DNA of 12,179 bases from a virus (IMGVR_UViG_3300033141_003953:1-12179), one strand, 5' to 3'; shown: positions 227 to 12,065, counted from the first letter of the stretch. Numbers and translations are program-made. The notes: generated by a model not told the origin, from the letters alone.

Positions 227-451
227 TTATTTTTTCTCTTCCAGCCATTTAGCTAATCTTTCAAAATAAGAAGCTGCGCTTTCATCTCTTTCAGCTTTAA
301 ATATTCTCTTAATTTTTCTAAAATCTTTAAGATACATTCTAATAACTATTGTCCCTTTACTTATACTTCCCCTGCTTGCTTGTTTAATGCCTTTATTCAT
401 GTTATAACTACGTATAACACCTTTATAAATGTTTCGTTTTTTAACAATCAC
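227..451 (-). CDS. Small basic protein, possible ribbon-helix-helix DNA binder, 74 aa
   Basis: Overlaps the upstream gene by 11 nt. A short beta-like strand (TIVIRMYL) is followed by two helices (KDFRKIKRIFKAE, SAASYFERLAKWLEE), a layout resembling Arc/CopG-type RHH proteins. The function is inference only. Confidence 0.5.
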   Translation of the reverse strand: MIVKKRNIYKGVIRSYNMNKGIKQASRGSISKGTIVIRMYLKDFRKIKRIFKAERDESAASYFERLAKWLEEKK

Positions 452-2249: not shown

Positions 2250-2257
2250 TTTATAAA
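2250..2257 (-). promoter_or_regulatory. TATA-like octamer TTTATAAA, 20 nt upstream of the fibre ATG
   Basis: Lies in the 85-nt intergenic gap 2230-2314. The same octamer at almost the same spacing precedes the terminase gene. No Shine-Dalgarno lies between the box and the ATG. Confidence 0.35.
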
Positions 2258-2314
2258 TATTTGCAGACCCCTATAACTAAGCCCAATAAATTCAGAGATT
2301 AATTGTTATCAGAA

Positions 2315-2485
2315 TTACGCAGATGTCACAGTTTCAAATGCTGTTCCATTATGAAATACAATTTTTCCACCAGATAGAAATATAGCTCCTGAGATTGTCG
2401 GCTGTAATTTATTATTTGCTCCTGAAATAACCTGAGGCAAAATTAACTCACTTGGAGCGCATACATCACCAATAAGCTCCACCAT
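2315..2485 (-). CDS. Hypothetical small protein, 56 aa (MVELIGDVCAPSELILPQVISGANNKLQ...)
   Basis: Hand-translated ORF below the track cutoff. Its ATG overlaps the upstream stop (TAAATG), and GGGGGA lies ~8 nt upstream as a possible RBS. Confidence 0.5.
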   Translation of the reverse strand: MVELIGDVCAPSELILPQVISGANNKLQPTISGAIFLSGGKIVFHNGTAFETVTSA

Positions 2486-2659
2486 TTATTTTCCCCCTTT
2501 CTTTTTCTTTACTTCTTCTTTTTCTTTAGAATTCTCTAAAAAATATTCAACATCGTACATCTTGCCTGGGTCTTCTGCAATATCAGCAGGTAGATTTCCA
2601 TTTATATCTCTATGGTCCCACCACTTCTTTCCTCTTTGCATTTTTCCTTTGTGTGACAT
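2486..2659 (-). CDS. Hypothetical small charged protein, 57 aa (MSHKGKMQRGKKWWDHRDING...)
   Basis: Hand-translated ORF below the track cutoff. It starts 1 nt after the capsid gene stop and fills otherwise unexplained space in a gene-dense operon. Confidence 0.5.
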   Translation of the reverse strand: MSHKGKMQRGKKWWDHRDINGNLPADIAEDPGKMYDVEYFLENSKEKEEVKKKKGGK

Positions 2660-2660
2660 T

Positions 2661-3530
2661 TTAACTTTGTGTGTTAGTTATTACATAGATAGCTTTTGGG
2701 TCTGTAACTTGTAGATGACCTATTTCCCAGCTTCTAATTGTGAATTTAATTCCTTTATCTTCAATAACTGCAGATGTTAATCCTACTACAGATTTCCATG
2801 TTGCAGCTCTTTGTCCTATGATTATCATTGCTTCGTCGTCTTCAACTGAATTAGTTTTAATTATTGTTAATCCACAGATTTGTCCCACCTTTCCATTAGA
2901 AACAACATCAGCAGTTTTAAAACTTGGATTATTAATTACTTTAGAGTTCATCATTAGATTCCTGTAATCTTTTGGTGATAATAATAAATAACCATTTTCT
3001 TGCGCGTCGTAATTATGTTCATCCATCGCTTGTATTCCAGTTAAAATATCTCTTATTGGGTCTCTATCTGCTACTGTTGCGCTGTCCCATGTTGCAACTG
3101 CAGCTGCAGTTTGTATTCCTGTAGCTCCTGATAATCCTGAATAAATTTGGTCATCTACAGCTTTTGCAATCGCTCTTGCTACTCTTAAAATTGTTCTTGC
3201 CTGAACATCAATAGCATCTGTCAATCTGTCTTCCATAAAGACATGACCTTCTGCTGCATATTTTTCATTTCTTGCAGAATGTTTTGTCCAGCTTGGGTCT
3301 ACATGAGGGAATGCTGCGCCTCTTGGGACTCCTTTAATGTTTAACTGGTCTTTTGCTGTTAAGTCTTCTGGATTTTCCCTATAATATGTTTCTTCCCATG
3401 AACTTGAACTTTGAAGTAATAGAACTTGTTTTAGTTTATATTGCTGTAACGCAAACCCTTTTACAGCTTTTGAAACATTCTCAGCTCTGAGTTCATAATC
3501 GCCCATATTTAAATTTGTTCCTGCTCCCAT
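2661..3530 (-). CDS. Major capsid protein, HK97-fold-like, 289 aa
   Basis: Its position directly after the decoration-like gene (1-nt gap) and its size are typical. A long amphipathic helix, TDAIDVQARTILRVARAIAKAVDDQIYSGL, resembles the HK97 spine helix, and the C-terminal half is beta-rich. No N-terminal delta domain is present, consistent with a separate scaffold gene. Confidence 0.75.
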   Translation of the reverse strand: MGAGTNLNMGDYELRAENVSKAVKGFALQQYKLKQVLLLQSSSSWEETYYRENPEDLTAKDQLNIKGVPRGAAFPHVDPSWTKHSARNEKYAAEGHVFMEDRLTDAIDVQARTILRVARAIAKAVDDQIYSGLSGATGIQTAAAVATWDSATVADRDPIRDILTGIQAMDEHNYDAQENGYLLLSPKDYRNLMMNSKVINNPSFKTADVVSNGKVGQICGLTIIKTNSVEDDEAMIIIGQRAATWKSVVGLTSAVIEDKGIKFTIRSWEIGHLQVTDPKAIYVITNTQS

Positions 3531-3531
3531 T

Positions 3532-3957
3532 TTAACCTAATAATAATTGAACATTTATAACTTCATCTGCAGAACCGTCTTCTAATGCTCTGCCAAATAT
3601 TGCGCCTCCGCTTGCTGTTGGAATGTCTGGTATTGGCGCAACTGTATTTGCTCCACTAATCATTACAAAATCTCCTGCATTTACAGCATTTGTGCATTTT
3701 ATATCAAATATTCCTGTAGTGTAGCATGATATTGTTGTAGAACCATCGTTTGCTTCTTTATCAAAACACGCAACTCCTGCTCCCCTATTGACTATTGCTG
3801 CTCCCGGCGAACTATCGCTTGAATTTATTGCTGTTCTTGGGTCTTGCAATAATAATAAATTGCCCCCTGAGATATGTGTTCCGTCTGCAACAGTGTAAGT
3901 TATAGGGTTTCCACCGTCGGGACCCAAATCAACTGTATATGCTCCTGATAATACCAT
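3532..3957 (-). CDS. DUF2190-like head decoration / capsid cement protein, 141 aa
   Basis: Gly/Ala-rich beta protein immediately upstream of the capsid gene. The layout ...GAGVACFDKEANDGSTTISCYTTGIFDIK...AGDFVMISGANTV...IFGRALEDGSADEVINVQLL matches my recollection of the DUF2190 family consensus (GVA...GvF...Gd.V...iG.Ale...V.V.L). Confidence 0.6.
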   Translation of the reverse strand: MVLSGAYTVDLGPDGGNPITYTVADGTHISGGNLLLLQDPRTAINSSDSSPGAAIVNRGAGVACFDKEANDGSTTISCYTTGIFDIKCTNAVNAGDFVMISGANTVAPIPDIPTASGGAIFGRALEDGSADEVINVQLLLG

Positions 3958-3978
3958 AGCAAAATTAAAAACTTAAAC

Positions 3979-3986
3979 TATTTAAA
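3979..3986 (-). promoter_or_regulatory. TATA-like octamer TTTAAATA, 21 nt upstream of the decoration-gene ATG
   Basis: Read on the minus strand: AAGATTTAAATA + 21 nt + ATG. It overlaps the stop codon of the upstream gene. There is no Shine-Dalgarno. Confidence 0.35.
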
Positions 3987-4323
3987 TCTTTCGTTTATTT
4001 GGTATGCCAAATTTTTCTCTTAGTTCTCCCACAAAAGGATTAAACCTATTGTTAATTTCTGTTTCTATATCTTGGATTCTATATTTATACCATGCTCTTC
4101 CTAGAAGATAACAACCAATTCCATAAAAAATACCGAGAATGAGGGTTTTTTTCACATCTAAACTACTAATCCCAAATAATGCAATCATATATTTTAGATA
4201 TGATGTTAATCCCCATCCTCTATCAAAATAAGCTTTTGCGACTAAAGGTTTAAAAATCTTTCTTTTATCAATTTCATAACCCTTCTGTTCCATCTGGTAA
4301 ATTTTTATCTTCTTTAATTCCAA
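3982..4323 (-). CDS. Small membrane protein with two predicted TM helices, 113 aa
   Basis: Hydrophobic segments LTSYLKYMIALFGISSL and TLILGIFYGIGCYLLGRAW are followed by a charged C-terminus. The real start may be the internal Met at 4293 (MEQKGYEI...), which would cut the overlap with the upstream ORF from 50 to 20 nt. Confidence 0.6.
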   Translation of the reverse strand: MELKKIKIYQMEQKGYEIDKRKIFKPLVAKAYFDRGWGLTSYLKYMIALFGISSLDVKKTLILGIFYGIGCYLLGRAWYKYRIQDIETEINNRFNPFVGELREKFGIPNKRKI

Positions 4324-4765
4324 TTCCTATTTTTTCGACGTTGTTTAGATATAAAGGCAGTCTTTCTATACTTTCTCCGTCATATTTTGGAATTTTTTTT
4401 ATACCTAAAATTTTTCTTAAAATAGTTATGTATTTTTGATGTTTTTTATGTTGTGTTTTTCCTTGATTATTTTCCAATATTGACCTTAACATTAAGTCTT
4501 TATATTCTTTTGGAAAAACAATCTCCCACAGCTGAATTGGTCTGACTGCAACCTGAACCATAGTGTTCTCTCCTCTAAACTTAAACGGCAAATACTTTCC
4601 TCTAAGGTCATTAATAAACCTATCTACGTCGTGTTTTATTCCTCTTGTTATTAGATATAAGTGCATATTAGATGAACAACGGATTTTCTTGCGCATTCTA
4701 AAATCGCATCTTTTGTAAAATTTATATTTACTGATGCGTATTTTGTTCCGGTGGTGATAACCCAA
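4274..4765 (-). CDS. Hypothetical protein, 163 aa as drawn (start uncertain)
   Basis: As drawn, the long ORF overlaps 4651..4866 by 115 nt. Internal starts at 4696 (MRKKIR) or 4666 (MHLYLITRGIKHDV..., 130 aa) are more plausible. No motif recognised. Confidence 0.55.
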   Translation of the reverse strand: MGYHHRNKIRISKYKFYKRCDFRMRKKIRCSSNMHLYLITRGIKHDVDRFINDLRGKYLPFKFRGENTMVQVAVRPIQLWEIVFPKEYKDLMLRSILENNQGKTQHKKHQKYITILRKILGIKKIPKYDGESIERLPLYLNNVEKIGIGIKEDKNLPDGTEGL

Positions 4766-4866
4766 TTAACACCATAGGCAACCCCTAAAATGTATCCAAT
4801 TAAGAACGCAATAATATAACTTGCTATTTTTTCGATTCTTTTTCGGAATTTTCCTCTGCCGGACAT
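4651..4866 (-). CDS. Small membrane protein with one TM helix, 71 aa
   Basis: Basic N-terminus (MSGRGKFRKRIEK) followed by the hydrophobic helix IASYIIAFLIGYILGVAYGVNWVI. Confidence 0.5.
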   Translation of the reverse strand: MSGRGKFRKRIEKIASYIIAFLIGYILGVAYGVNWVITTGTKYASVNINFTKDAILECARKSVVHLICTYI

Positions 4867-4994
4867 TTTTCTAATGCTTGTTTAAATGATTTAAGAACAA
4901 TTTTATGTATTTCTATCCCTTTCTCCATTTTTTTTATTGTTTCCTCTGACGCTTTTATTTCTATTTCTATATCTTTTTTAGATAAAACCATCAT
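4824..4994 (-). CDS. Possible small charged helical protein, 56 aa (MMVLSKKDIEIEIKASEETIKKMEKG...)
   Basis: Hand-translated ORF that fills the 111-nt gap between 4978..5295 and 4651..4866. It overlaps the former by 17 nt and the latter by 43 nt, and ends TCG AAA AAA TAG. Confidence 0.3.
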   Translation of the reverse strand: MMVLSKKDIEIEIKASEETIKKMEKGIEIHKIVLKSFKQALEKCPAEENSEKESKK

Positions 4995-5295
4995 CTTTAA
5001 GTGGATTTGCTTCTCCTGTCATCACTTTTTTTGCATATTCTACATCACTTATAGGTTCTGGTTTTGGAGGTGTTTGTCCTGCTTCACTTTCTCCACCTAA
5101 ACTTTTCCTTGCTAAAATTTCTTCTTCTCTTTTAATTAATTCTTCTTTTTTTGTGTTTGCTTCTTCCAGCCTTTCAGCTGCTTCGTTTGCTCGTCTAATA
5201 ACCTCAATCTCTTCTGGCTTATTCCCATTATCATTTGATTCATCTGCATTCTTTTGTTTTTTTTCTTTCTGTTCTTTTTGCTCATTCATTTCCAT
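4978..5295 (-). CDS. Acidic coiled-coil protein, putative capsid scaffolding protein, 105 aa
   Basis: Extremely Glu/Lys-rich helical sequence (EEIEVIRRANEAAERLEEANTKKEELIKREEEILARK) in the head module. It is preceded by a strong Shine-Dalgarno. The functional call is inference from composition and position. Confidence 0.5.
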   Translation of the reverse strand: MEMNEQKEQKEKKQKNADESNDNGNKPEEIEVIRRANEAAERLEEANTKKEELIKREEEILARKSLGGESEAGQTPPKPEPISDVEYAKKVMTGEANPLKDDGFI

Positions 5296-5303
5296 TATGT
5301 TCT

Positions 5304-5311
5304 ACCTCCTT
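5304..5311 (-). promoter_or_regulatory. Shine-Dalgarno AAGGAGGT, 8 nt before the ATG at 5295
   Basis: Occupies the 16-nt gap after the stop at 5312-5314. The extended 12-mer TGAAAGGAGGTA is identical to the one before the OB-fold gene. Confidence 0.6.
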
Positions 5312-6223
5312 TCACATTCTTTCGAGAATTTGCTTCTCCATTTCTATATTTCTTAATACTGAGTTTCCTGTAGTTTCCATTAAAAACCATAAAGGATATA
5401 ATAAAGGATTTGAAATTGTCGCAGCTCTCAGTGTCCATCTTGCTGCATTTACATCTGAAACCGCAGAGTCTAATTCTGCTAATGCTTCTCCTTGTGATAT
5501 ATTTCCAAACCTTACTTGTGAGGAAATATCTCTCGTATTCATGCTTGCCAGTGTTAATAAATTGTCTCCTGCAAACCATGCTGTTAATATTGTTCCTGTT
5601 TGATGAGCTGCTAATAATGCTTTATGTGATTTTGCAAATGCGAAGCCTGCTTTTAATGCAGATTTTAATCCAAACCTGTTCATATTGCTTACTGTTGCCT
5701 GTGCTTTGATTAATGTTCCTTTTCCCACTTGTGTTCCCATAAATCTTACTCCTGCGGCTTTACCTGCTCCACCTAATAATCTTCCTGCTAATAATGTTCC
5801 TCCTGCAACTGCCCCTGCAAAAGCTGCTGTTCCTAAAACATCTCCTGCTGTTATTCTTCCGCCCCACCATGCTCTTGCCTGCTCTCTTTGCTCTGGAGTT
5901 CCTACACCTGCAGCGCTTAATCCCTTTACTGCTAATTTTCCACCTAATTTAAATGCTGAACTTACTAATGGTATTTTTTTGCCGATTTCTCCGACTTTTT
6001 CAATAAACCCTGTTTTCTTTTCTGCCGGTTTTTTTAAAGGCTTTTCTTCTTTTTTTTCTACTTTTTCTAAAAGACCCCCTCTTGCTAATGCCTCAGTCCT
6101 TCTTTTTGTTTTAATTTTTTTTAATTCTTTTTCCAAATTTTGTCTTTTAAGAGGCTTAGAGCCAAGTTTTTCCTTTACTTCTTCAAATCTTTTTTTTCGT
6201 TTTCCAAAAAGCCATAATGCCAT
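5312..6223 (-). CDS. Hypothetical protein, 303 aa: Lys-rich N-terminus, Gly/Ala-rich hydrophobic core
   Basis: Long ORF between portal and scaffold. The first ~80 residues are highly basic/charged. The core includes GTAAFAGAVAGGTLLAGRLLGGAGKAAG. No catalytic motif recognised. Confidence 0.65.
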   Translation of the reverse strand: MALWLFGKRKKRFEEVKEKLGSKPLKRQNLEKELKKIKTKRRTEALARGGLLEKVEKKEEKPLKKPAEKKTGFIEKVGEIGKKIPLVSSAFKLGGKLAVKGLSAAGVGTPEQREQARAWWGGRITAGDVLGTAAFAGAVAGGTLLAGRLLGGAGKAAGVRFMGTQVGKGTLIKAQATVSNMNRFGLKSALKAGFAFAKSHKALLAAHQTGTILTAWFAGDNLLTLASMNTRDISSQVRFGNISQGEALAELDSAVSDVNAARWTLRAATISNPLLYPLWFLMETTGNSVLRNIEMEKQILERM

Positions 6224-6231
6224 TTTTTATT

Positions 6232-6399
6232 TTATTTTATCTTCGGTGTTGGAATTGTTATGCCTATTGCTCCTGCAATAACAGCTATAACAGTTGTCAG
6301 TATAATACCATCTATTCCTTTAGATAATGCGAACATTTCTAAAGCTGTTATGCAAAATATTCCAGTGCATACAATCCTCCAATCTATTTTTTTCTTCAT
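6232..6399 (-). CDS. Small membrane protein, 55 aa (MKKKIDWRIVCTGIFCITALEMFALSKGIDGIILTTVIAVIAGAIGITIPTPKIK)
   Basis: Hand-translated ORF below the track cutoff. It starts 2 nt after the portal stop (6402-6404) and has two hydrophobic segments. Confidence 0.55.
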   Translation of the reverse strand: MKKKIDWRIVCTGIFCITALEMFALSKGIDGIILTTVIAVIAGAIGITIPTPKIK

Positions 6400-6401
6400 C
6401 A

Positions 6402-7496
6402 TTATTGTCCGCTTCCTGCGGTGGTTTCGTTTGGTTGAATATTAATTGGTTCATCCTTTGCTTTATCTGATAATAAATCGTTTTCTAAACTTGCTGGAAA
6501 TTCAAGCTCAATTTTTAATCCTAATTGCTCCCAGACCTGCTCTTCAACAAATAACTGCTCTTCTTCTATTGTCTGCTGAAATGCTAAATATGCAATTTTT
6601 GCTGTTGCTTCTGTAAATTCTGATGAACTTCCTACTATGATTTGAGGCACTCCTGTCGCCTGAAAGAAATAATTTTTTAATGCTTCAATCCATGGCAGAG
6701 GGTTTAAAGTTGCATTTGTCGGCACAGAAAGTAATTCATGCTCTACTGTCCCTTTTGGGACAAAAATATTCTCTGCGTTTTCTACTGCTTTGTCTGCTTT
6801 TGTTTTAAATGCTGCTATTTCTGCAGTATCGTCGGTATCTAAATGCCAGACAATTCTTGGCACGACATTTCTATGCATTAATTTTTTCATATCAGACATC
6901 GCTTCATTTCTCATTAAAATTATTGTTTCTAATGCTTCAATCATAGATTGCCCATGAATTTCATCTGCCACTCTGTTTCTTGCTAAGTGGAATATATTCT
7001 CTGGATTAAATTTTTTGTTTGGAGATTTTACTTTTGATTTTTGTTCATATCTTTTTATTCTTCCTTGCCTATCTACTACGATTATTATTACTCCGGGGTC
7101 TAATGGTTTAAGATTTAATATGTCCCCCTCATCATTTCTGATTATTTCACAAAAAGCGTCTCCGCCTATATTGTAGGTTCTTATCATATTTTCTATGATT
7201 GTGTTAAATGTATCTTTTCCCCAGCCTGTTATGAAATTTAGGGTTGCTTCTGTTTCTGAGTCTGCTTTAAATCCTTTTCCTACTGTCCATGTTGCTTTTG
7301 CGTCAATAACAGCCTTTAATTCTGGGATTGTTCTGTAATATCCTAAATATTTAGTCCAGTTTGTATTTTCCCATGTTGTTTCATCCTGCTCTGCTGGTCC
7401 ATCTGTTGTTGATACATCTACAGAAAAGTCGCTGACTACTCCTGACATATTTCCGTAGTCTGCTGAACTTATTTTTGTTTCGGGCATTTTAAACAT
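6402..7496 (-). CDS. Portal protein, 364 aa
   Basis: Size, position near the terminase, and sequence blocks resemble HK97-family portals as I recall them (NIGGDAFCEIIRNDEGDILNLKPLDP, FHLARNRVADEIHGQSMIEAL, ATGVPQIIVG...EATAKIAYLAFQQTIEEEQ). The start overlaps the upstream gene by 8 nt. Confidence 0.75.
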   Translation of the reverse strand: MFKMPETKISSADYGNMSGVVSDFSVDVSTTDGPAEQDETTWENTNWTKYLGYYRTIPELKAVIDAKATWTVGKGFKADSETEATLNFITGWGKDTFNTIIENMIRTYNIGGDAFCEIIRNDEGDILNLKPLDPGVIIIVVDRQGRIKRYEQKSKVKSPNKKFNPENIFHLARNRVADEIHGQSMIEALETIILMRNEAMSDMKKLMHRNVVPRIVWHLDTDDTAEIAAFKTKADKAVENAENIFVPKGTVEHELLSVPTNATLNPLPWIEALKNYFFQATGVPQIIVGSSSEFTEATAKIAYLAFQQTIEEEQLFVEEQVWEQLGLKIELEFPASLENDLLSDKAKDEPINIQPNETTAGSGQ

Positions 7497-8352
7497 CTAT
7501 TACAAATGGAACATGGAAAGTTAGTGTTGTCGGTTGTCCATCTTCAATTATTTGAGCAAAGTTAGTCCCTCCTGTATAAGCCCCTGAAATAAATCTATCA
7601 TTTCTATTTGCTGGGTCGTGTGCTATTCCAGCTGAAAATATTTCTGATGGTGCTGTATTTTTAAACCATGCCTCTATAGTAAATCTTAAGATTTCTCCCT
7701 TTTTAAAATGTTGCACTTCTGATAGATTTATTTTAATTAAGGCTGTGTGGCTTTGCAGCTTCCACCAGTCCATATTCATTGCATGAAAATAAACTGATTG
7801 TCCGCTTCCTAATTCTGTTTCTGTTGTTCCATCGTAGTGTTTAGCTGTGACTGTTACATAAAAAGTCACATCTGCCTCATTATTTTCCAGATTTTGAACT
7901 CCTACTGGGACATTTATTATTAAATCTCCTTTGATGTTTTTTGGTGTGTTGAATGTTATATCAAAATCTTCATCTACTAATTTTGTAAAAGAGTTTGCAA
8001 TATCTCCACTTGCAATACCTGATTTTAACCACTCAGAGTAAATTGTTGGCACTGTTGTTACTAATGTCGCTCCACTTGTTCCTCTTGCTCCATAATAAAC
8101 ATCATATCCTACGCCATTCGCTATATCAAAATAATCATAGTTTATTAATTGTTTTCCCGGAGCAAATAATGGCTCTACAGGTCTAATACTTAATTTTTTT
8201 TTAGGAATTTCAGCGGGTTCTGGTTCTGAGAATTCAGCTGGCGGTAGGATTATTGGTGGCGGTTCTAATTTCTTTTTTTTAATTTCGTGCGGGTCTTCTT
8301 CTTCCAGTTCTGGTTCTCTTGCAAATAAATTTGTTCCAAAATTTAAAGCCAT
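7489..8352 (-). CDS. Hypothetical structural-looking protein, 287 aa
   Basis: An acidic, Pro-rich N-terminal linker (EPPPIILPPAEFSEPEPAEIPKKK) is followed by a beta-rich domain. Coupled to its neighbours by 8- and 10-nt overlaps. Confidence 0.6.
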   Translation of the reverse strand: MALNFGTNLFAREPELEEEDPHEIKKKKLEPPPIILPPAEFSEPEPAEIPKKKLSIRPVEPLFAPGKQLINYDYFDIANGVGYDVYYGARGTSGATLVTTVPTIYSEWLKSGIASGDIANSFTKLVDEDFDITFNTPKNIKGDLIINVPVGVQNLENNEADVTFYVTVTAKHYDGTTETELGSGQSVYFHAMNMDWWKLQSHTALIKINLSEVQHFKKGEILRFTIEAWFKNTAPSEIFSAGIAHDPANRNDRFISGAYTGGTNFAQIIEDGQPTTLTFHVPFVIDV

Positions 8353-8789
8353 CTTTTTATTGATAATTCTTTATTTAAATCAGGCAGTTTTCCCTGATTT
8401 CTTTCTGAAAATAAAACTGCATGACCTATATTTAATAATTCTTCATTTATGTTTATTCCCTGATGAATAATTTCTCCTAATATTCTTCCTCTCCTTCCTA
8501 CTCTTTGTTTATCTGGAATAATTTCAACTTTCGCTCCTGACAACCTCTTTTCCAGCCAGTTTCTTGCTTCTTTCCCCCCTTTTTCATTCATTTCTGGAGC
8601 CTGAATTTTTGACAGTCTTATTGGAAAATCAAAATCTCTCTCACTCCATCTTACTCTTATTGTATCTCCATCTATAATTTTTACTACTTCTGCCTGAAAA
8701 TTTTCTGTTATCTGCTTGTGCGGGCTGTCAAAATAATAAATCTGCATTTGGCTGTTTGTTAATTCAGGAAATTTGTTAAAATCATGCAT
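8343..8789 (-). CDS. Staphylococcal-nuclease (thermonuclease, SNase) homologue, 148 aa
   Basis: Aligns by eye to S. aureus nuclease: IDGDT = IDGDT; IRLSKIQAPE vs FRLLLVDTPE; KQRVGRRGRILGEI vs DKYGRGLAYIY; NEELLNIGHA vs NEALVRQGLA. Confidence 0.8.
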   Translation of the reverse strand: MHDFNKFPELTNSQMQIYYFDSPHKQITENFQAEVVKIIDGDTIRVRWSERDFDFPIRLSKIQAPEMNEKGGKEARNWLEKRLSGAKVEIIPDKQRVGRRGRILGEIIHQGININEELLNIGHAVLFSERNQGKLPDLNKELSIKRWL

Positions 8790-9168
8790 CGTCTATAAAA
8801 TCTGTTTGTTTTTTGTCTTTGAGTAATGATAACCCTCTTAATGCTCCGTCTCTTAATACAGTTATCATACTTTCGGCTTCTGCTCTGCTTGTATATCCAG
8901 ACATATCATAGTTAATGCAGTAAATTGCTGCTAAATTGCTGGCAATTTCACTTAATATGTGTTTTACATCTTCGTTTAATGTTGTATATGTGTCGCTGTA
9001 ATTTACTCTTGTCATAGTGTTTATGAATGCTTCTGCTTCATTAATCCACTGAGTTATTAATTCGTCTGGTGTCTGACCGTAGATTGTAGTTCCACCTGTT
9101 AGATTAGAATTTACGTTGCTTCCTGCTTTTACTAAAACAGCTCCGCTTGTTGTCATTATTGCTGCCAT
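8782..9168 (-). CDS. Possible head-tail adaptor (gp6-like connector), 128 aa
   Basis: A helical segment, PDELITQWINEAEAFINTMTRVNY, resembles the conserved N-terminal helix pair of gp6-like connector proteins. It lies directly downstream of the terminase. Function is low-confidence. Confidence 0.45.
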   Translation of the reverse strand: MAAIMTTSGAVLVKAGSNVNSNLTGGTTIYGQTPDELITQWINEAEAFINTMTRVNYSDTYTTLNEDVKHILSEIASNLAAIYCINYDMSGYTSRAEAESMITVLRDGALRGLSLLKDKKQTDFIDDA

Positions 9169-9175
9169 GATTTTT

Positions 9176-10447
9176 TTATGTTATCCATATATTTAAATGT
9201 TTGTCTTTTACACACCAGACAGCTCTTATAAGTGCTTCTGCAATATGTGTATAATTTCCAAAAATTTTTAATTTTCCGTCTTCAGTATATTCATATTGAA
9301 CTGATTTTAAACTATGAAAAATTTCCTCTCTGTTTAAAAAGCTAACTTTTTCTCTTTCCATAAGATTCAACAAATTATTGTATAAATCTTCTTTTAATAA
9401 TTTTTTCCGCCTTTTTTCTTCATTATCTAAACTTCTTCTGGAATTATTAATTGCTTCTACTTTTCTTTTTGTTTGTGGATGGTCCAGCAAACTATCAAAT
9501 ACTCCTACTCCTAATCCTCCATCATCAATATATATTCTTTTATAATTGTTTTTTTTATCTAAAGCAATAATTTCAGTTGTTATTTGGGTTAAAAGCATTT
9601 TAGTGAAAATTTGGCAGTCAAACATAATTAATTCGCCATTTCTTTTTCGTTCAACAGAACAAAAAACTGTTTCATCTCCGCCCATTCTTGCTATATCTAC
9701 TCCTAAAAATTTTTTATAATTTGGAGTATAGTTTTCAGGTGCTATCATTCTTTCTTTTATTAAGTTATCAGGAAAGAATTGTCTTAGTTCATCAACAAAT
9801 TCCCCAAGATATTCCTGTGCGAATTGTAATTTTGTCATCCTTTTCTTTTCTCTTTCTATATTTTCCATCATTCTTTCTTTCATATTTTTTGGTCTTATTT
9901 TTGCTACTTCTGGCGTAGATATGTGAAATTTTTTATAATTTTTATCCTGAAATGATTCATAGAAATAACCCTGTCTGCCAAATGGTGTGCTTAACAGCCA
10001 TATATCCCCACCTGTTGTTGCAAGCATAGGAGTTATTGCTGCCCAAACATCTTCGGGTATAAAGGCGGCTTCATCTACAATCAATAAATCTATTGTGTAT
10101 CCTCTTATTCCGTAACCTGATTCTCCGACTGGCAGGCAGTAAATTGTTGAATTGTTTTTTAATTGTAGTTTGTGTTTTGTTGGTCTGTCTTTTCCAGTTT
10201 TAATAATTTTTTTATCTTTATTATGGATATAGGACAATATTTTTTCAAAAAGAAGTTGTGCTTGTCTTTCAACTTTTGCAACCACCATAATTGTTTTTTC
10301 TGAATTTTTTATTGCGTATTCTCCTGCTTTCATAGAGATTATTGTAGATTTCCCGACTTGTCTCCCAGACCTTAAAGCGATATTTCCATTAGAATTTAAA
10401 ATTTCTTTTTGCCATTTGTCGAGTTTGAAATTAAATATGTTTTTCAT
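9176..10447 (-). CDS. terL: Terminase large subunit, 423 aa
   Basis: Walker A RSGRQVGKST; Walker B IDLLIVDEAAF; coupling motif LSTP; RNase-H-like nuclease acidic motifs LGVDIARMGGDETV and IYIDDGGLGVGV. Confidence 0.9.
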   Translation of the reverse strand: MKNIFNFKLDKWQKEILNSNGNIALRSGRQVGKSTIISMKAGEYAIKNSEKTIMVVAKVERQAQLLFEKILSYIHNKDKKIIKTGKDRPTKHKLQLKNNSTIYCLPVGESGYGIRGYTIDLLIVDEAAFIPEDVWAAITPMLATTGGDIWLLSTPFGRQGYFYESFQDKNYKKFHISTPEVAKIRPKNMKERMMENIEREKKRMTKLQFAQEYLGEFVDELRQFFPDNLIKERMIAPENYTPNYKKFLGVDIARMGGDETVFCSVERKRNGELIMFDCQIFTKMLLTQITTEIIALDKKNNYKRIYIDDGGLGVGVFDSLLDHPQTKRKVEAINNSRRSLDNEEKRRKKLLKEDLYNNLLNLMEREKVSFLNREEIFHSLKSVQYEYTEDGKLKIFGNYTHIAEALIRAVWCVKDKHLNIWIT

Positions 10448-10468
10448 AGTTTAGTGTTGTTTAGTAAG

Positions 10469-10476
10469 TTTATAAA
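10469..10476 (-). promoter_or_regulatory. TATA-like octamer TTTATAAA preceded by an A-run, 21 nt upstream of the terL ATG
   Basis: Read on the minus strand: ACAAAAAAATTTTATAAA + 21 nt + ATG. There is no Shine-Dalgarno. Confidence 0.4.
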
Positions 10477-10547
10477 ATTTTTTGTGGAGTTCTGAGTTAT
10501 ACAAAACACAGGAACGAACAATAATCGCTAATAACAATACACAAACA

Positions 10548-10793: not shown

Positions 10794-10893
10794 GCATTAC
10801 AAAACATAAATTTTAAATACTTGGAACGCTTAGAATTTGCAAAGCAAATTCTAAGTTAATAATAGTGGAAAGTTTTAGGTTGTTTTGTAATGC
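10794..10893. repeat. Nested inverted repeats: 13-bp arms flanking a perfect 12-bp-stem hairpin
   Basis: GCATTACAAAACA (10794-10806) is the exact reverse complement of TGTTTTGTAATGC (10881-10893). Between them, CTTAGAATTTGC-AAA-GCAAATTCTAAG (10829-10855) forms a perfect hairpin. Confidence 0.9.
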
Positions 10894-10940
10894 AAAGAAA
10901 TTAGAAACATTTAAATAGTATGTTTTCTTGTCTCTCTTAT

Positions 10941-11066
10941 ATGCGCTTCGATACGAGTAAGTTTCTCGTCTATCAAAAGCCAGTGACAGAAGGCATAGCA
11001 GGGACGGTTCGTAACTATACTTCTTCACTGACTTTTTACGTAAAACGTTCTATACTTACTCTCTGA
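10941..11066 (+). CDS. Speculative 41-aa micro-ORF (MRFDTSKFLVYQKPVTEGIAGTVRNYTSSLTFYVKRSILTL)
   Basis: The ATG lies 23 nt downstream of a plus-strand TTTAAATA (10910-10917), and the ORF ends 17 nt before the 11084 ORF. No other support. Confidence 0.2.
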   Translation: MRFDTSKFLVYQKPVTEGIAGTVRNYTSSLTFYVKRSILTL

Positions 11067-11083
11067 AAAACACAGACAGAGAA

Positions 11084-11296
11084 ATGAAATACATAGAAAT
11101 AAAACAAATTGTGAAACTTCTAAACGGCAAGGACATTAAAATAGAAGGTGAAACTTTTTCTCTTAAATCTATGGCAGGATGGTATAAACTTAAAAGGAGA
11201 CATCACTGCATTTTAGAAGAAGGTGAGCAATTAGAAGAAGTGAAAGAAAAAGAAAGAATAGAAATGAATAAAAAATTAAATTTCTCCAGCCTTTAA
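11084..11296 (+). CDS. Hypothetical protein, 70 aa; the only plus-strand ORF of at least 60 aa that I accept
   Basis: ORF diverging from the non-coding region. Its 3' end overlaps the convergent minus-strand gene by 21 nt. No motif recognised. Confidence 0.45.
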   Translation: MKYIEIKQIVKLLNGKDIKIEGETFSLKSMAGWYKLKRRHHCILEEGEQLEEVKEKERIEMNKKLNFSSL

Positions 11297-11461: not shown

Positions 11462-11524
11462 TTTCTTAATTTAAACAGGGGGTATGGACGCATTTGAATA
11501 ATCCCCCCCTGTGAATATACAATT

Positions 11525-11944
11525 TCAATTAAAAGCTTCCTGTGCCTGCTTTACAACTTTGATAGATTCTGCCATTATTTTCTCATTACTTTCATCTAAA
11601 TCGAATAATCCTCTTATTACTGTAAATATTTCAGTTGCCAGCCCAACAGGGTCTTTAGGATATGTTTTCGCTTCAATAGAGCCATTCTGAGCCACTTTCT
11701 TTACTTCTTCAATATCATTACCCTCTATTTTCTCCATTTCTTTCATATCGAAGTATCCATCTTCGTTTATCTCTCCCTTTATCAATACTGCATCACCCGG
11801 CTTGTGATTTGTTGCGTGTTTTTTATCAAATGTAGAATAATTTTTCCCATTAACAATAAAAACCCATCTTGTGTATGGCTTTCCGTTTTTGCCGACTCCT
11901 GAACTCATATCAACTTTTTCAATAATTCCTTTTATTGTTTCCAT
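11525..11944 (-). CDS. OB-fold-like protein, possible ssDNA-binding protein, 139 aa
   Basis: The N-terminal ~70 residues have a beta-rich pattern (GKNGKPYTRWVFIVNGKNYSTFDKK...PGDAVLIKGEI) resembling small OB-fold SSBs, with an acidic/helical C-terminal tail. Preceded by a strong Shine-Dalgarno. Confidence 0.5.
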   Translation of the reverse strand: METIKGIIEKVDMSSGVGKNGKPYTRWVFIVNGKNYSTFDKKHATNHKPGDAVLIKGEINEDGYFDMKEMEKIEGNDIEEVKKVAQNGSIEAKTYPKDPVGLATEIFTVIRGLFDLDESNEKIMAESIKVVKQAQEAFN

Positions 11945-12065
11945 GTTTACCTCCTTTCATTTTCATTCGAATATTACAAAGGGGCTACTCGGAATTACGC
12001 TTTTATGAAGAGTAATGTAGACTACATTTTAGAACATCTTAGCAACCACTTCGCCCCTTTGACTA
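11945..12065. promoter_or_regulatory. Intergenic control region with nested palindromes
   Basis: CAAAGGGGC (11977-11985) pairs with GCCCCTTTG (12053-12061). A central palindrome, AATGTAG-A-CTACATT, lies at 12014-12028. Confidence 0.45.
11949..11956 (-). promoter_or_regulatory. Shine-Dalgarno AAGGAGGT, 4 nt before the ATG at 11944
   Basis: Read on the minus strand: TGAAAGGAGGTAAAC ATG. The 12-mer is the same as at 5303-5314. Confidence 0.6.

Follow-up and report, generated by a model that had tools for sequence, protein, structure and literature searches.

The genome of the virus IMGVR_UViG_3300033141_003953, the whole 12,179-bp stretch of which is referred to here as the window, carries the octamers TTTATAAA and TTTAAATA at a nearly constant distance upstream of a subset of its genes. 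These octamers are very probably the TATA boxes of archaeal core promoters whose first genes would be read from leaderless mRNAs. The motifs, their spacing, their conservation in related genomes and the selection acting on the DNA of the boxes are all directly observed. The layout supports the assignment of the whole family of related genomes to viruses of archaea, and not of bacteria.

On the coding (minus) strand of the window the two octamers occur in only seven copies, and six of the seven end 19-21 nucleotides (nt) upstream of the ATG of a gene (distances were measured to the ATG, not to mapped transcription starts). In 2000 dinucleotide-preserving shuffles, where coding-strand boxes were compared with 22 gene starts, the mean number of boxes at this distance was 0.0185 and the maximum was two. 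Thus the shuffling check called for in an earlier reading of this DNA from the sequence alone (the sequence-only reading) shows that the coincidence is not expected from composition. Counted from the A of the ATG, the box spans -29 to -22 at five sites; from the first base of the box to this A there are 28-29 nt. Five of the six sites have the triplet AAA at positions -5 to -3 relative to the box, as in a B recognition element (BRE), and a pyrimidine at position -1 relative to the gene start. The five minus-strand boxes starting at 10476, 9197, 3986, 2257 and 429, as well as two sites on the plus strand, score well against a positional weight matrix (PWM) trained on the sites of the virus family (Table 1).

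Three of the boxes, those of the terL, fibre and decoration genes, had been described in the sequence-only reading as lying on this strand 21, 20 and 21 nt before the ATG, with no Shine-Dalgarno (SD) sequence in between, and both observations were confirmed. The proposal that the A-run upstream of the terL box is BRE-like also agrees with the AAA found there and with the enrichment of this element in the family. That reading missed the boxes before ATG 9168, ATG 400 and, doubtfully, ATG 8352. Its statement that the boxes follow real intergenic gaps fails for the decoration gene, where the gap is only 24 nt and the box includes the TAA stop codon of the upstream open reading frame (ORF) 4323-3982.

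The same layout was found in 88 related genomes and fragments with GC content of 31-47%, including 80 IMG/VR loci and six close contigs from metagenome-assembled genomes (MAGs). The analysis was anchored on the motif TTTAWAWA and not on chosen start codons. Among 441 coding-strand boxes, an ATG opening an ORF occurs exactly 21, 22 and 23 nt downstream in 88, 37 and 19 cases, respectively, compared to 3, 0 and 2 cases for the 253 boxes on the opposite strand. The peak is sharp, at 21-23 nt.

The 21-nt class comprises 84 unique sites, and the positions of the BRE, the -10 element and the initiator played no part in their selection. In these sites A is present at positions -34, -33 and -32 in 93%, 87% and 96% of cases. 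Position -35 is C or G, and positions -36 and -38 are A. T occurs at -10 in 74% of sites, and a pyrimidine at -1, followed by the A of the ATG, in 87%. The family consensus can be written as A.A[CG]AAA-NN-TTTAAATA-N21-ATG. The BRE-like AAA accompanies 100 of 142 start-associated boxes, but only 48 of 270 other boxes on the same strand (Fisher test, 6e-26) and 6 of 227 antisense boxes. When gene classes are considered separately, the fractions are 47/47, 20/26 and 33/68, so that the signal holds in each.

In all, 150 start-associated boxes were assigned to genes. Most frequently they precede the adaptor-like gene (50 boxes), the decoration gene (27) and variable genes without a homologue in the window (52). 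The remaining assignments are to the portal gene (8), terL (3), the capsid gene (3), the fibre gene (2) and the orthologues of the genes at ATG 5295 (3), ATG 400 (1) and ATG 11461 (1). The box of the adaptor-like gene is present in 48-56 of 82 orthologues. The tail-spike-like (fibre) gene is too variable across the relatives for conservation of its box to be assessed.

The promoter of the adaptor-like gene lies within the 3' end of terL. The conserved C-terminal peptide KDKxLNI of TerL is encoded by AAAGACAAAnnTTTAAATA (9176-9202, minus strand), and the same DNA forms the BRE and TATA box of the next gene. In 45 TerL proteins that retain LNI, leucine is encoded by TTA in all 45 cases (family usage 48%), asparagine by AAT also in all 45 (usage 62%), and the preceding third base is T in 41 (32% in the family). 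This fixation of synonymous codons shows that selection acts on the DNA itself, keeping TTTAAATA within the terL reading frame. The site would thus offer a clear natural case of a coding sequence that harbours a promoter and is constrained by it.

TATA boxes at 19-24 nt and SD sequences almost never occur together. With gene starts assigned by homology only, the four cells of the comparison are 2, 102, 114 and 213 (Fisher test, 5e-14). In the orthologues of the decoration gene, 24 of 38 have a box at 19-24 nt and no SD. Those with GAGGT or GGTGA (L060, L021, L023 and L040) have the box 34-37 nt upstream instead. Because the box is moved to this distance exactly where an SD leader is present, its position fits a fixed distance from box to transcription start, and nothing else. 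The SD-bearing orthologues may thus be regarded as a natural experiment, placing the predicted start approximately 21-23 nt after the box. The relatives seem to use two interchangeable designs, leaderless or with a short SD leader.

Two genes of the window, at ATG 5295 and ATG 11944, are preceded by the identical strong SD sequence TGAAAGGAGGTA, as the sequence-only reading had noticed. They are not the only candidates, as weaker SD-like stretches are present before ATG 2485 (GGGGG) and ATG 3530 (AGGT). A five-nucleotide SD is found in 10 of 19 orthologues of the gene at ATG 5295. The two SD regions (5303-5330 and 11948-11975) form a 28-nt repeat with 82% identity, extending beyond the shared 12-mer. 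A TTATAAAT box before the capsid gene was considered as a promoter and rejected: the SD is used in 24 to 29 of 41 capsid orthologues, depending on the SD definition.

From this layout we infer how the factors would bind, where transcription would start and where its units would end. The TATA-binding protein TBP of the host would bind TTTAAATA or TTTATAAA, and TFB would read the A-rich BRE, that is, the AAA 3-5 nt upstream, often within CGAAA or ACAAA. The host RNA polymerase would begin at a purine following a pyrimidine, about 29 nt downstream of the first T of the box; this purine is the A of the ATG. If transcription begins at this A, the first gene of a unit needs no SD and would be translated from a leaderless mRNA. 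Genes inside a unit may rely on an SD (GGAGGT at 5295), on overlapping start and stop codons, or on neither. The five good minus-strand promoters would divide the genome into units. The first would contain terL; the second, the genes from the adaptor through the SNase and portal genes down to 3982, including the SD-bearing gene at 5295; the third, the decoration and capsid genes; the fourth, the tail spike and a 77-amino-acid ORF. The fifth would run from ATG 400 through small genes and may reach the SD-bearing gene at 11944 by crossing the terminal repeat. Two further sites would face the opposite way in the control region.

In archaeal promoters the TATA box is centred near -27, the BRE near -33, an A/T element lies at -10 and a pyrimidine at -1 (PMC5316973). 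Core promoters of this type with leaderless mRNAs were mapped by differential RNA sequencing in Thermococcus onnurineus, Haloferax volcanii and Sulfolobus (PMC5316973, PMC4983044), and form group D of GeneMarkS-2 (PMC6028130). The virus sites have the same elements: an A/T box of 8 bp with its centre about 26 nt upstream of the start, a purine-rich, more exactly A-rich, BRE centred at -33, T or A at -10, an initiator with a pyrimidine at -1 and a purine at +1, and an ATG start. The first cistrons lack an SD, and some internal genes have one. Unlike the mapped promoters, the starts in the window are predicted from the sequence, the genome is that of a 12-kb virus, and one signal lies within the terminase reading frame.

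Another parallel is provided by the promoters T3, T4, T9 and Tind of the virus SSV1 (NC_001338), which also are viral promoters and which are read by the host machinery from annotated starts. Counted from the first base of the box, the mapped starts of T3, T4 and T9 are at 27-30 nt, close to the 28-29 nt in the window, and the ATG follows 0-1 nt later. However, SSV1, a spindle-shaped Sulfolobus virus, is not related to the family, and its boxes, TTTAAAGT or TTTATAAA, are preceded by G/C-rich bases and not by AAA.

The nearest cultured virus is also archaeal. The TerL protein is 33% identical to TerL of the haloarchaeal virus HGTV-1 (E-value 4e-53), whereas the best bacterial phage match has an E-value of 1e-14 or weaker. 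For the capsid protein, the lowest E-value (8e-6) again belongs to HGTV-1. Judging by E-values, HGTV-1 appears to be the closest cultured relative for both proteins. Comparison of the portal proteins was uninformative about relatives.

The pattern AAA-N2-TTTAWATA-N21-ATG was counted in two groups of genomes, Nanoarchaeota and Patescibacteria. The 41 Nanoarchaeota genomes contain 185 matches with the 21-nt spacing and 54 with a 28-nt spacing, the reversed-pattern control being 11 in both cases. In the 41 Patescibacteria genomes there are five matches with the 21-nt spacing and eight in the control. Therefore, of the two groups, the layout exists in the DPANN phylum and not in bacteria of the candidate phyla radiation (CPR). 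The archaeal leaderless interpretation, already offered in the sequence-only reading, is supported by the fixed spacing, the BRE, -10 and initiator elements, the mutual exclusion of TATA and SD, the codon selection, the geometry of SSV1 promoters and the relatedness to HGTV-1. A narrower proposal is possible but doubtful: that the hosts of the family are non-halophilic DPANN archaea (Nanoarchaeota in the GTDB sense), and that the KDKxLNI peptide evolved together with the BRE/TATA promoter encoded in it or owes its existence to this promoter.

Several other explanations were considered. The host could be an AT-rich bacterium, e.g. from the CPR/Patescibacteria, and the octamers could be -10-like elements followed by SD-less leaders of about 14 nt, an alternative that the sequence-only reading had kept. 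The genome is AT-rich, and some contigs of the family were binned with Saccharibacteria and Levyibacteriota, but these contigs are short and contain only virus sequence, which makes for weak binning evidence. Sigma-70-like sites are not enriched (52, compared to 47.2 +/- 6.8 in shuffled sequences). No intrinsic terminator was found on the coding strand of the window; three terminator-like hairpins are all on the non-coding strand, compared to 5.7 +/- 2.6 in shuffles. The conserved partner of the box is the A-run directly upstream and not a -35 element 17 nt away. Archaeal boxes lie 22-26 nt from leaderless starts, and bacterial leaderless boxes 6-10 nt (PMC6028130); the latter (group C of GeneMarkS-2) resemble the virus sites in that an AT-rich box lies close to the start codon at a constant distance, but have no BRE, whereas the window and the family have 21-23 nt with a BRE. 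The AT-rich bacterial podophages phi44AHJD (30% GC) and Mycoplasma phage P1 (27% GC) contain 31 and 35 TTTAWAWA boxes, none of which has an ORF-opening ATG at 19-24 nt, compared to 7 of 20 boxes in the window. The Patescibacteria themselves carry the pattern at the control level only. A bacterial host is thus already largely refuted, and we regard it as very unlikely.

Even less likely, in our opinion, is that the boxes serve as promoters for a specificity factor encoded by the virus itself, in a host of any domain. The model for this is provided by the late promoters of phage T4 (TATAAATA), which are read by gp55. The octamer loosely resembles the T4 late consensus, and the virus has several small proteins without known function. 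On the other hand, T4 late boxes, similar to the bacterial leaderless ones, are about 6-10 nt from the start and lack a BRE, whereas the complete set of BRE, TATA, -10 and initiator elements with its spacing is that of archaeal promoters of the host type. Indeed, the same pattern is frequent in Nanoarchaeota chromosomes. Scans against Pfam and PHROGs detected no sigma-like or RNA-polymerase-like protein among the window proteins, and the boxes precede structural and small non-structural genes alike. The least probable explanation is that the octamers have some other role, as binding sites of packaging or replication proteins or as translation enhancers, or are a by-product of AT-rich gene boundaries. 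Some boxes do extend into stop codons or coding sequence, and octamers rich in A and T are frequent at a GC content of 34%. However, neither shuffled sequences nor real AT-rich phages reproduce the spacing, the signal is strand-specific, and the shift of the box in the presence of an SD leader would have to be accounted for.

A number of observations speak against the assignment of these sites to archaeal promoters. The family sequences are related, and the counts are not fully independent. A weaker detail is the lineage-specific terL promoter: a box at such spacing is present in 2-4 of 77 relatives, since most of them have another gene in front of terL. The box at 8379 was rejected as a promoter: it has no BRE, an unsuitable initiator position and a low score, and the gene at ATG 8352 has no orthologue among the genes that follow the 150 start-associated boxes of the relatives. 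The genes at 11944 and 11461 lack a recognizable promoter; in the former case there is no promoter-like site within 120 nt upstream. Pfam and PHROGs scans revealed no archaea-specific protein among the virus genes. Family contigs L083-L088 come from MAGs labelled Saccharibacteria, Levyibacteriota, Nanoarchaeota and "uncultured archaeon", a mixture of domains. Finally, the whole-genome query against 401 Nanoarchaeota genomes, five of which are flagged as unpublished (G327, G249, G338, G401 and G365) and partly underlie this negative result, produced no match resembling a CRISPR spacer. There were only short AT-rich chance matches, the best one (G182; 41 nt, 91% identity) being outside any repeat array.

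Since the MAG contigs are short, consist of virus sequence only and bear mixed labels, binning does not decide the host. At least some of these labels are binning artefacts. TerL homologues also bear the labels Heimdallarchaeaceae and Planctomycetia. The sequence-only reading had further pointed to the absence of a cell-wall hydrolase. None was found in the Pfam and PHROGs scans, but as an argument about the host this is weaker, as it is based on those negative scans only. A Pfam scan of 30 variable genes of the family yielded only lectin, beta-helix and CcdA-type domains, which carry no information on the host domain. A scan of 37 loci of the family for tRNA genes revealed none. No integrated copy was found among the family contigs. 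The only contig exceeding unit length (L051, IMG/VR, 21,422 bp) was examined as a candidate provirus and rejected: it consists of two family genomes, about 76-80% identical, joined at a spacing of 12,330 nt, and is an assembly chimera or a mixed concatemer.

If the reading as archaeal core promoters is correct, a very large family of head-tail viruses of about 12 kb can be assigned to a host domain from its promoter layout alone. The family is apparently undescribed in the literature searched, and its contigs presently are binned in both bacterial (CPR) and archaeal (DPANN) MAGs. More than 2900 homologues of TerL were found at E <= 1e-20, the longest contigs being nearly always 11-13.7 kb, and these thousands of relatives come from marine, groundwater and sediment metagenomes. 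If the hosts are indeed DPANN archaea, the family would provide the first tailed viruses of that group and some of the smallest known. The mechanism, standard archaeal transcription with leaderless translation, is already known, and the value of the result is in host assignment and annotation and not in a new principle. It provides a transcription map of five candidate units on one strand, where the decoration and capsid genes would have their own promoter, and corrected gene starts.

Table 1. Candidate promoters, Shine-Dalgarno blocks and annotated genes of the window.
Feature	Coordinates	Strand	Elements or basis	Distance to start codon	Position -1	PWM score
Candidate terL promoter	10469..10481	-	AAA 10481-10479; TTTATAAA 10476-10469	21 nt, ATG 10447	T	11.7
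Candidate internal promoter in the 3' end of terL	9190..9202	-	AAA 9202-9200; TTTAAATA 9197-9190	21 nt, ATG 9168	C	24.1
Doubtful box	8372..8379	-	TTTAAATA; without BRE	19 nt, ATG 8352	G	below 4
Candidate promoter of the decoration/capsid operon	3979..3991	-	AAA 3991-3989 (in CGAAAGA); TTTAAATA 3986-3979	21 nt, ATG 3957		21.1
Candidate promoter of the tail-spike-like gene	2250..2262	-	AAA 2262-2260; TTTATAAA 2257-2250	20 nt, ATG 2229	T	9.8
Candidate promoter of the gene at ATG 400	422..434	-	AAA 434-432 (in CGAAACA); TTTATAAA 429-422	21 nt, ATG 400	C	16.1
Plus-strand BRE/TATA site	10898..10943	+	TTTAAATA 10910-10917	23 nt, ATG 10941 (41-amino-acid ORF)		19.7
Second plus-strand promoter-like site	10800..10819	+	TTTAAATA 10812-10819			15.1
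SD block (operon-internal gene)	5303..5314	-	TGAAAGGAGGTA (GGAGG 5309-5305)	9 nt, ATG 5295		
SD block (identical to 5303..5314)	11948..11959	-	TGAAAGGAGGTA (GGAGG 11954-11950)	5 nt, ATG 11944		
TerL	10447-9176	-	Pfam/PHROGs			
Adaptor-like protein	9168-8782	-	Pfam/PHROGs			
SNase-type nuclease	8789-8343	-	Pfam/PHROGs			
Portal protein	7496-6402	-	Pfam/PHROGs			
Cement/decoration protein	3957-3532	-	Pfam/PHROGs			
HK97-type capsid protein	3530-2661	-	Pfam/PHROGs			
Tail-spike-like protein (fibre)	2229-682	-	Pfam/PHROGs			

As an IMG/VR record, the window is a complete virus genome; its ends carry a direct repeat of 114 bp, and the unit length is thus 12,065 bp. Its GC content is 33%, and nearly all genes are on the minus strand. 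The small proteins have no match in Pfam. There were no matches to Rfam families in the window. The mechanically assigned starts of two minus-strand ORFs, 227-451 and 441-746, are too long. As the box 429-422 sits 21 nt before ATG 400, promoter geometry suggests that the first ORF starts at this ATG and not at the listed GTG 451, and encodes 57 amino acids (400-227). The second ORF probably starts at ATG 674, directly after the stop codon of the tail-spike gene, and encodes a protein of 77 amino acids with several cysteines and histidines.

On the plus strand, the ORF at ATG 10941 is followed by an ORF of 70 amino acids (11084-11296). The region 10898-11296 is probably a divergent unit of small genes leaving the control region. 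No ORF begins at the leaderless distance from the second plus-strand site (10812-10819). Cores resembling origin recognition boxes are absent from the window; a few matches occur in a few relatives (L017, L024, L053 and others). Between the stop codon of a 139-amino-acid gene and ATG 11461, a run of G and a run of C, separated by about 20 nt (11478-11509, minus strand), could form a hairpin. A T-run follows the stop codon of a 61-amino-acid gene, near 11270.

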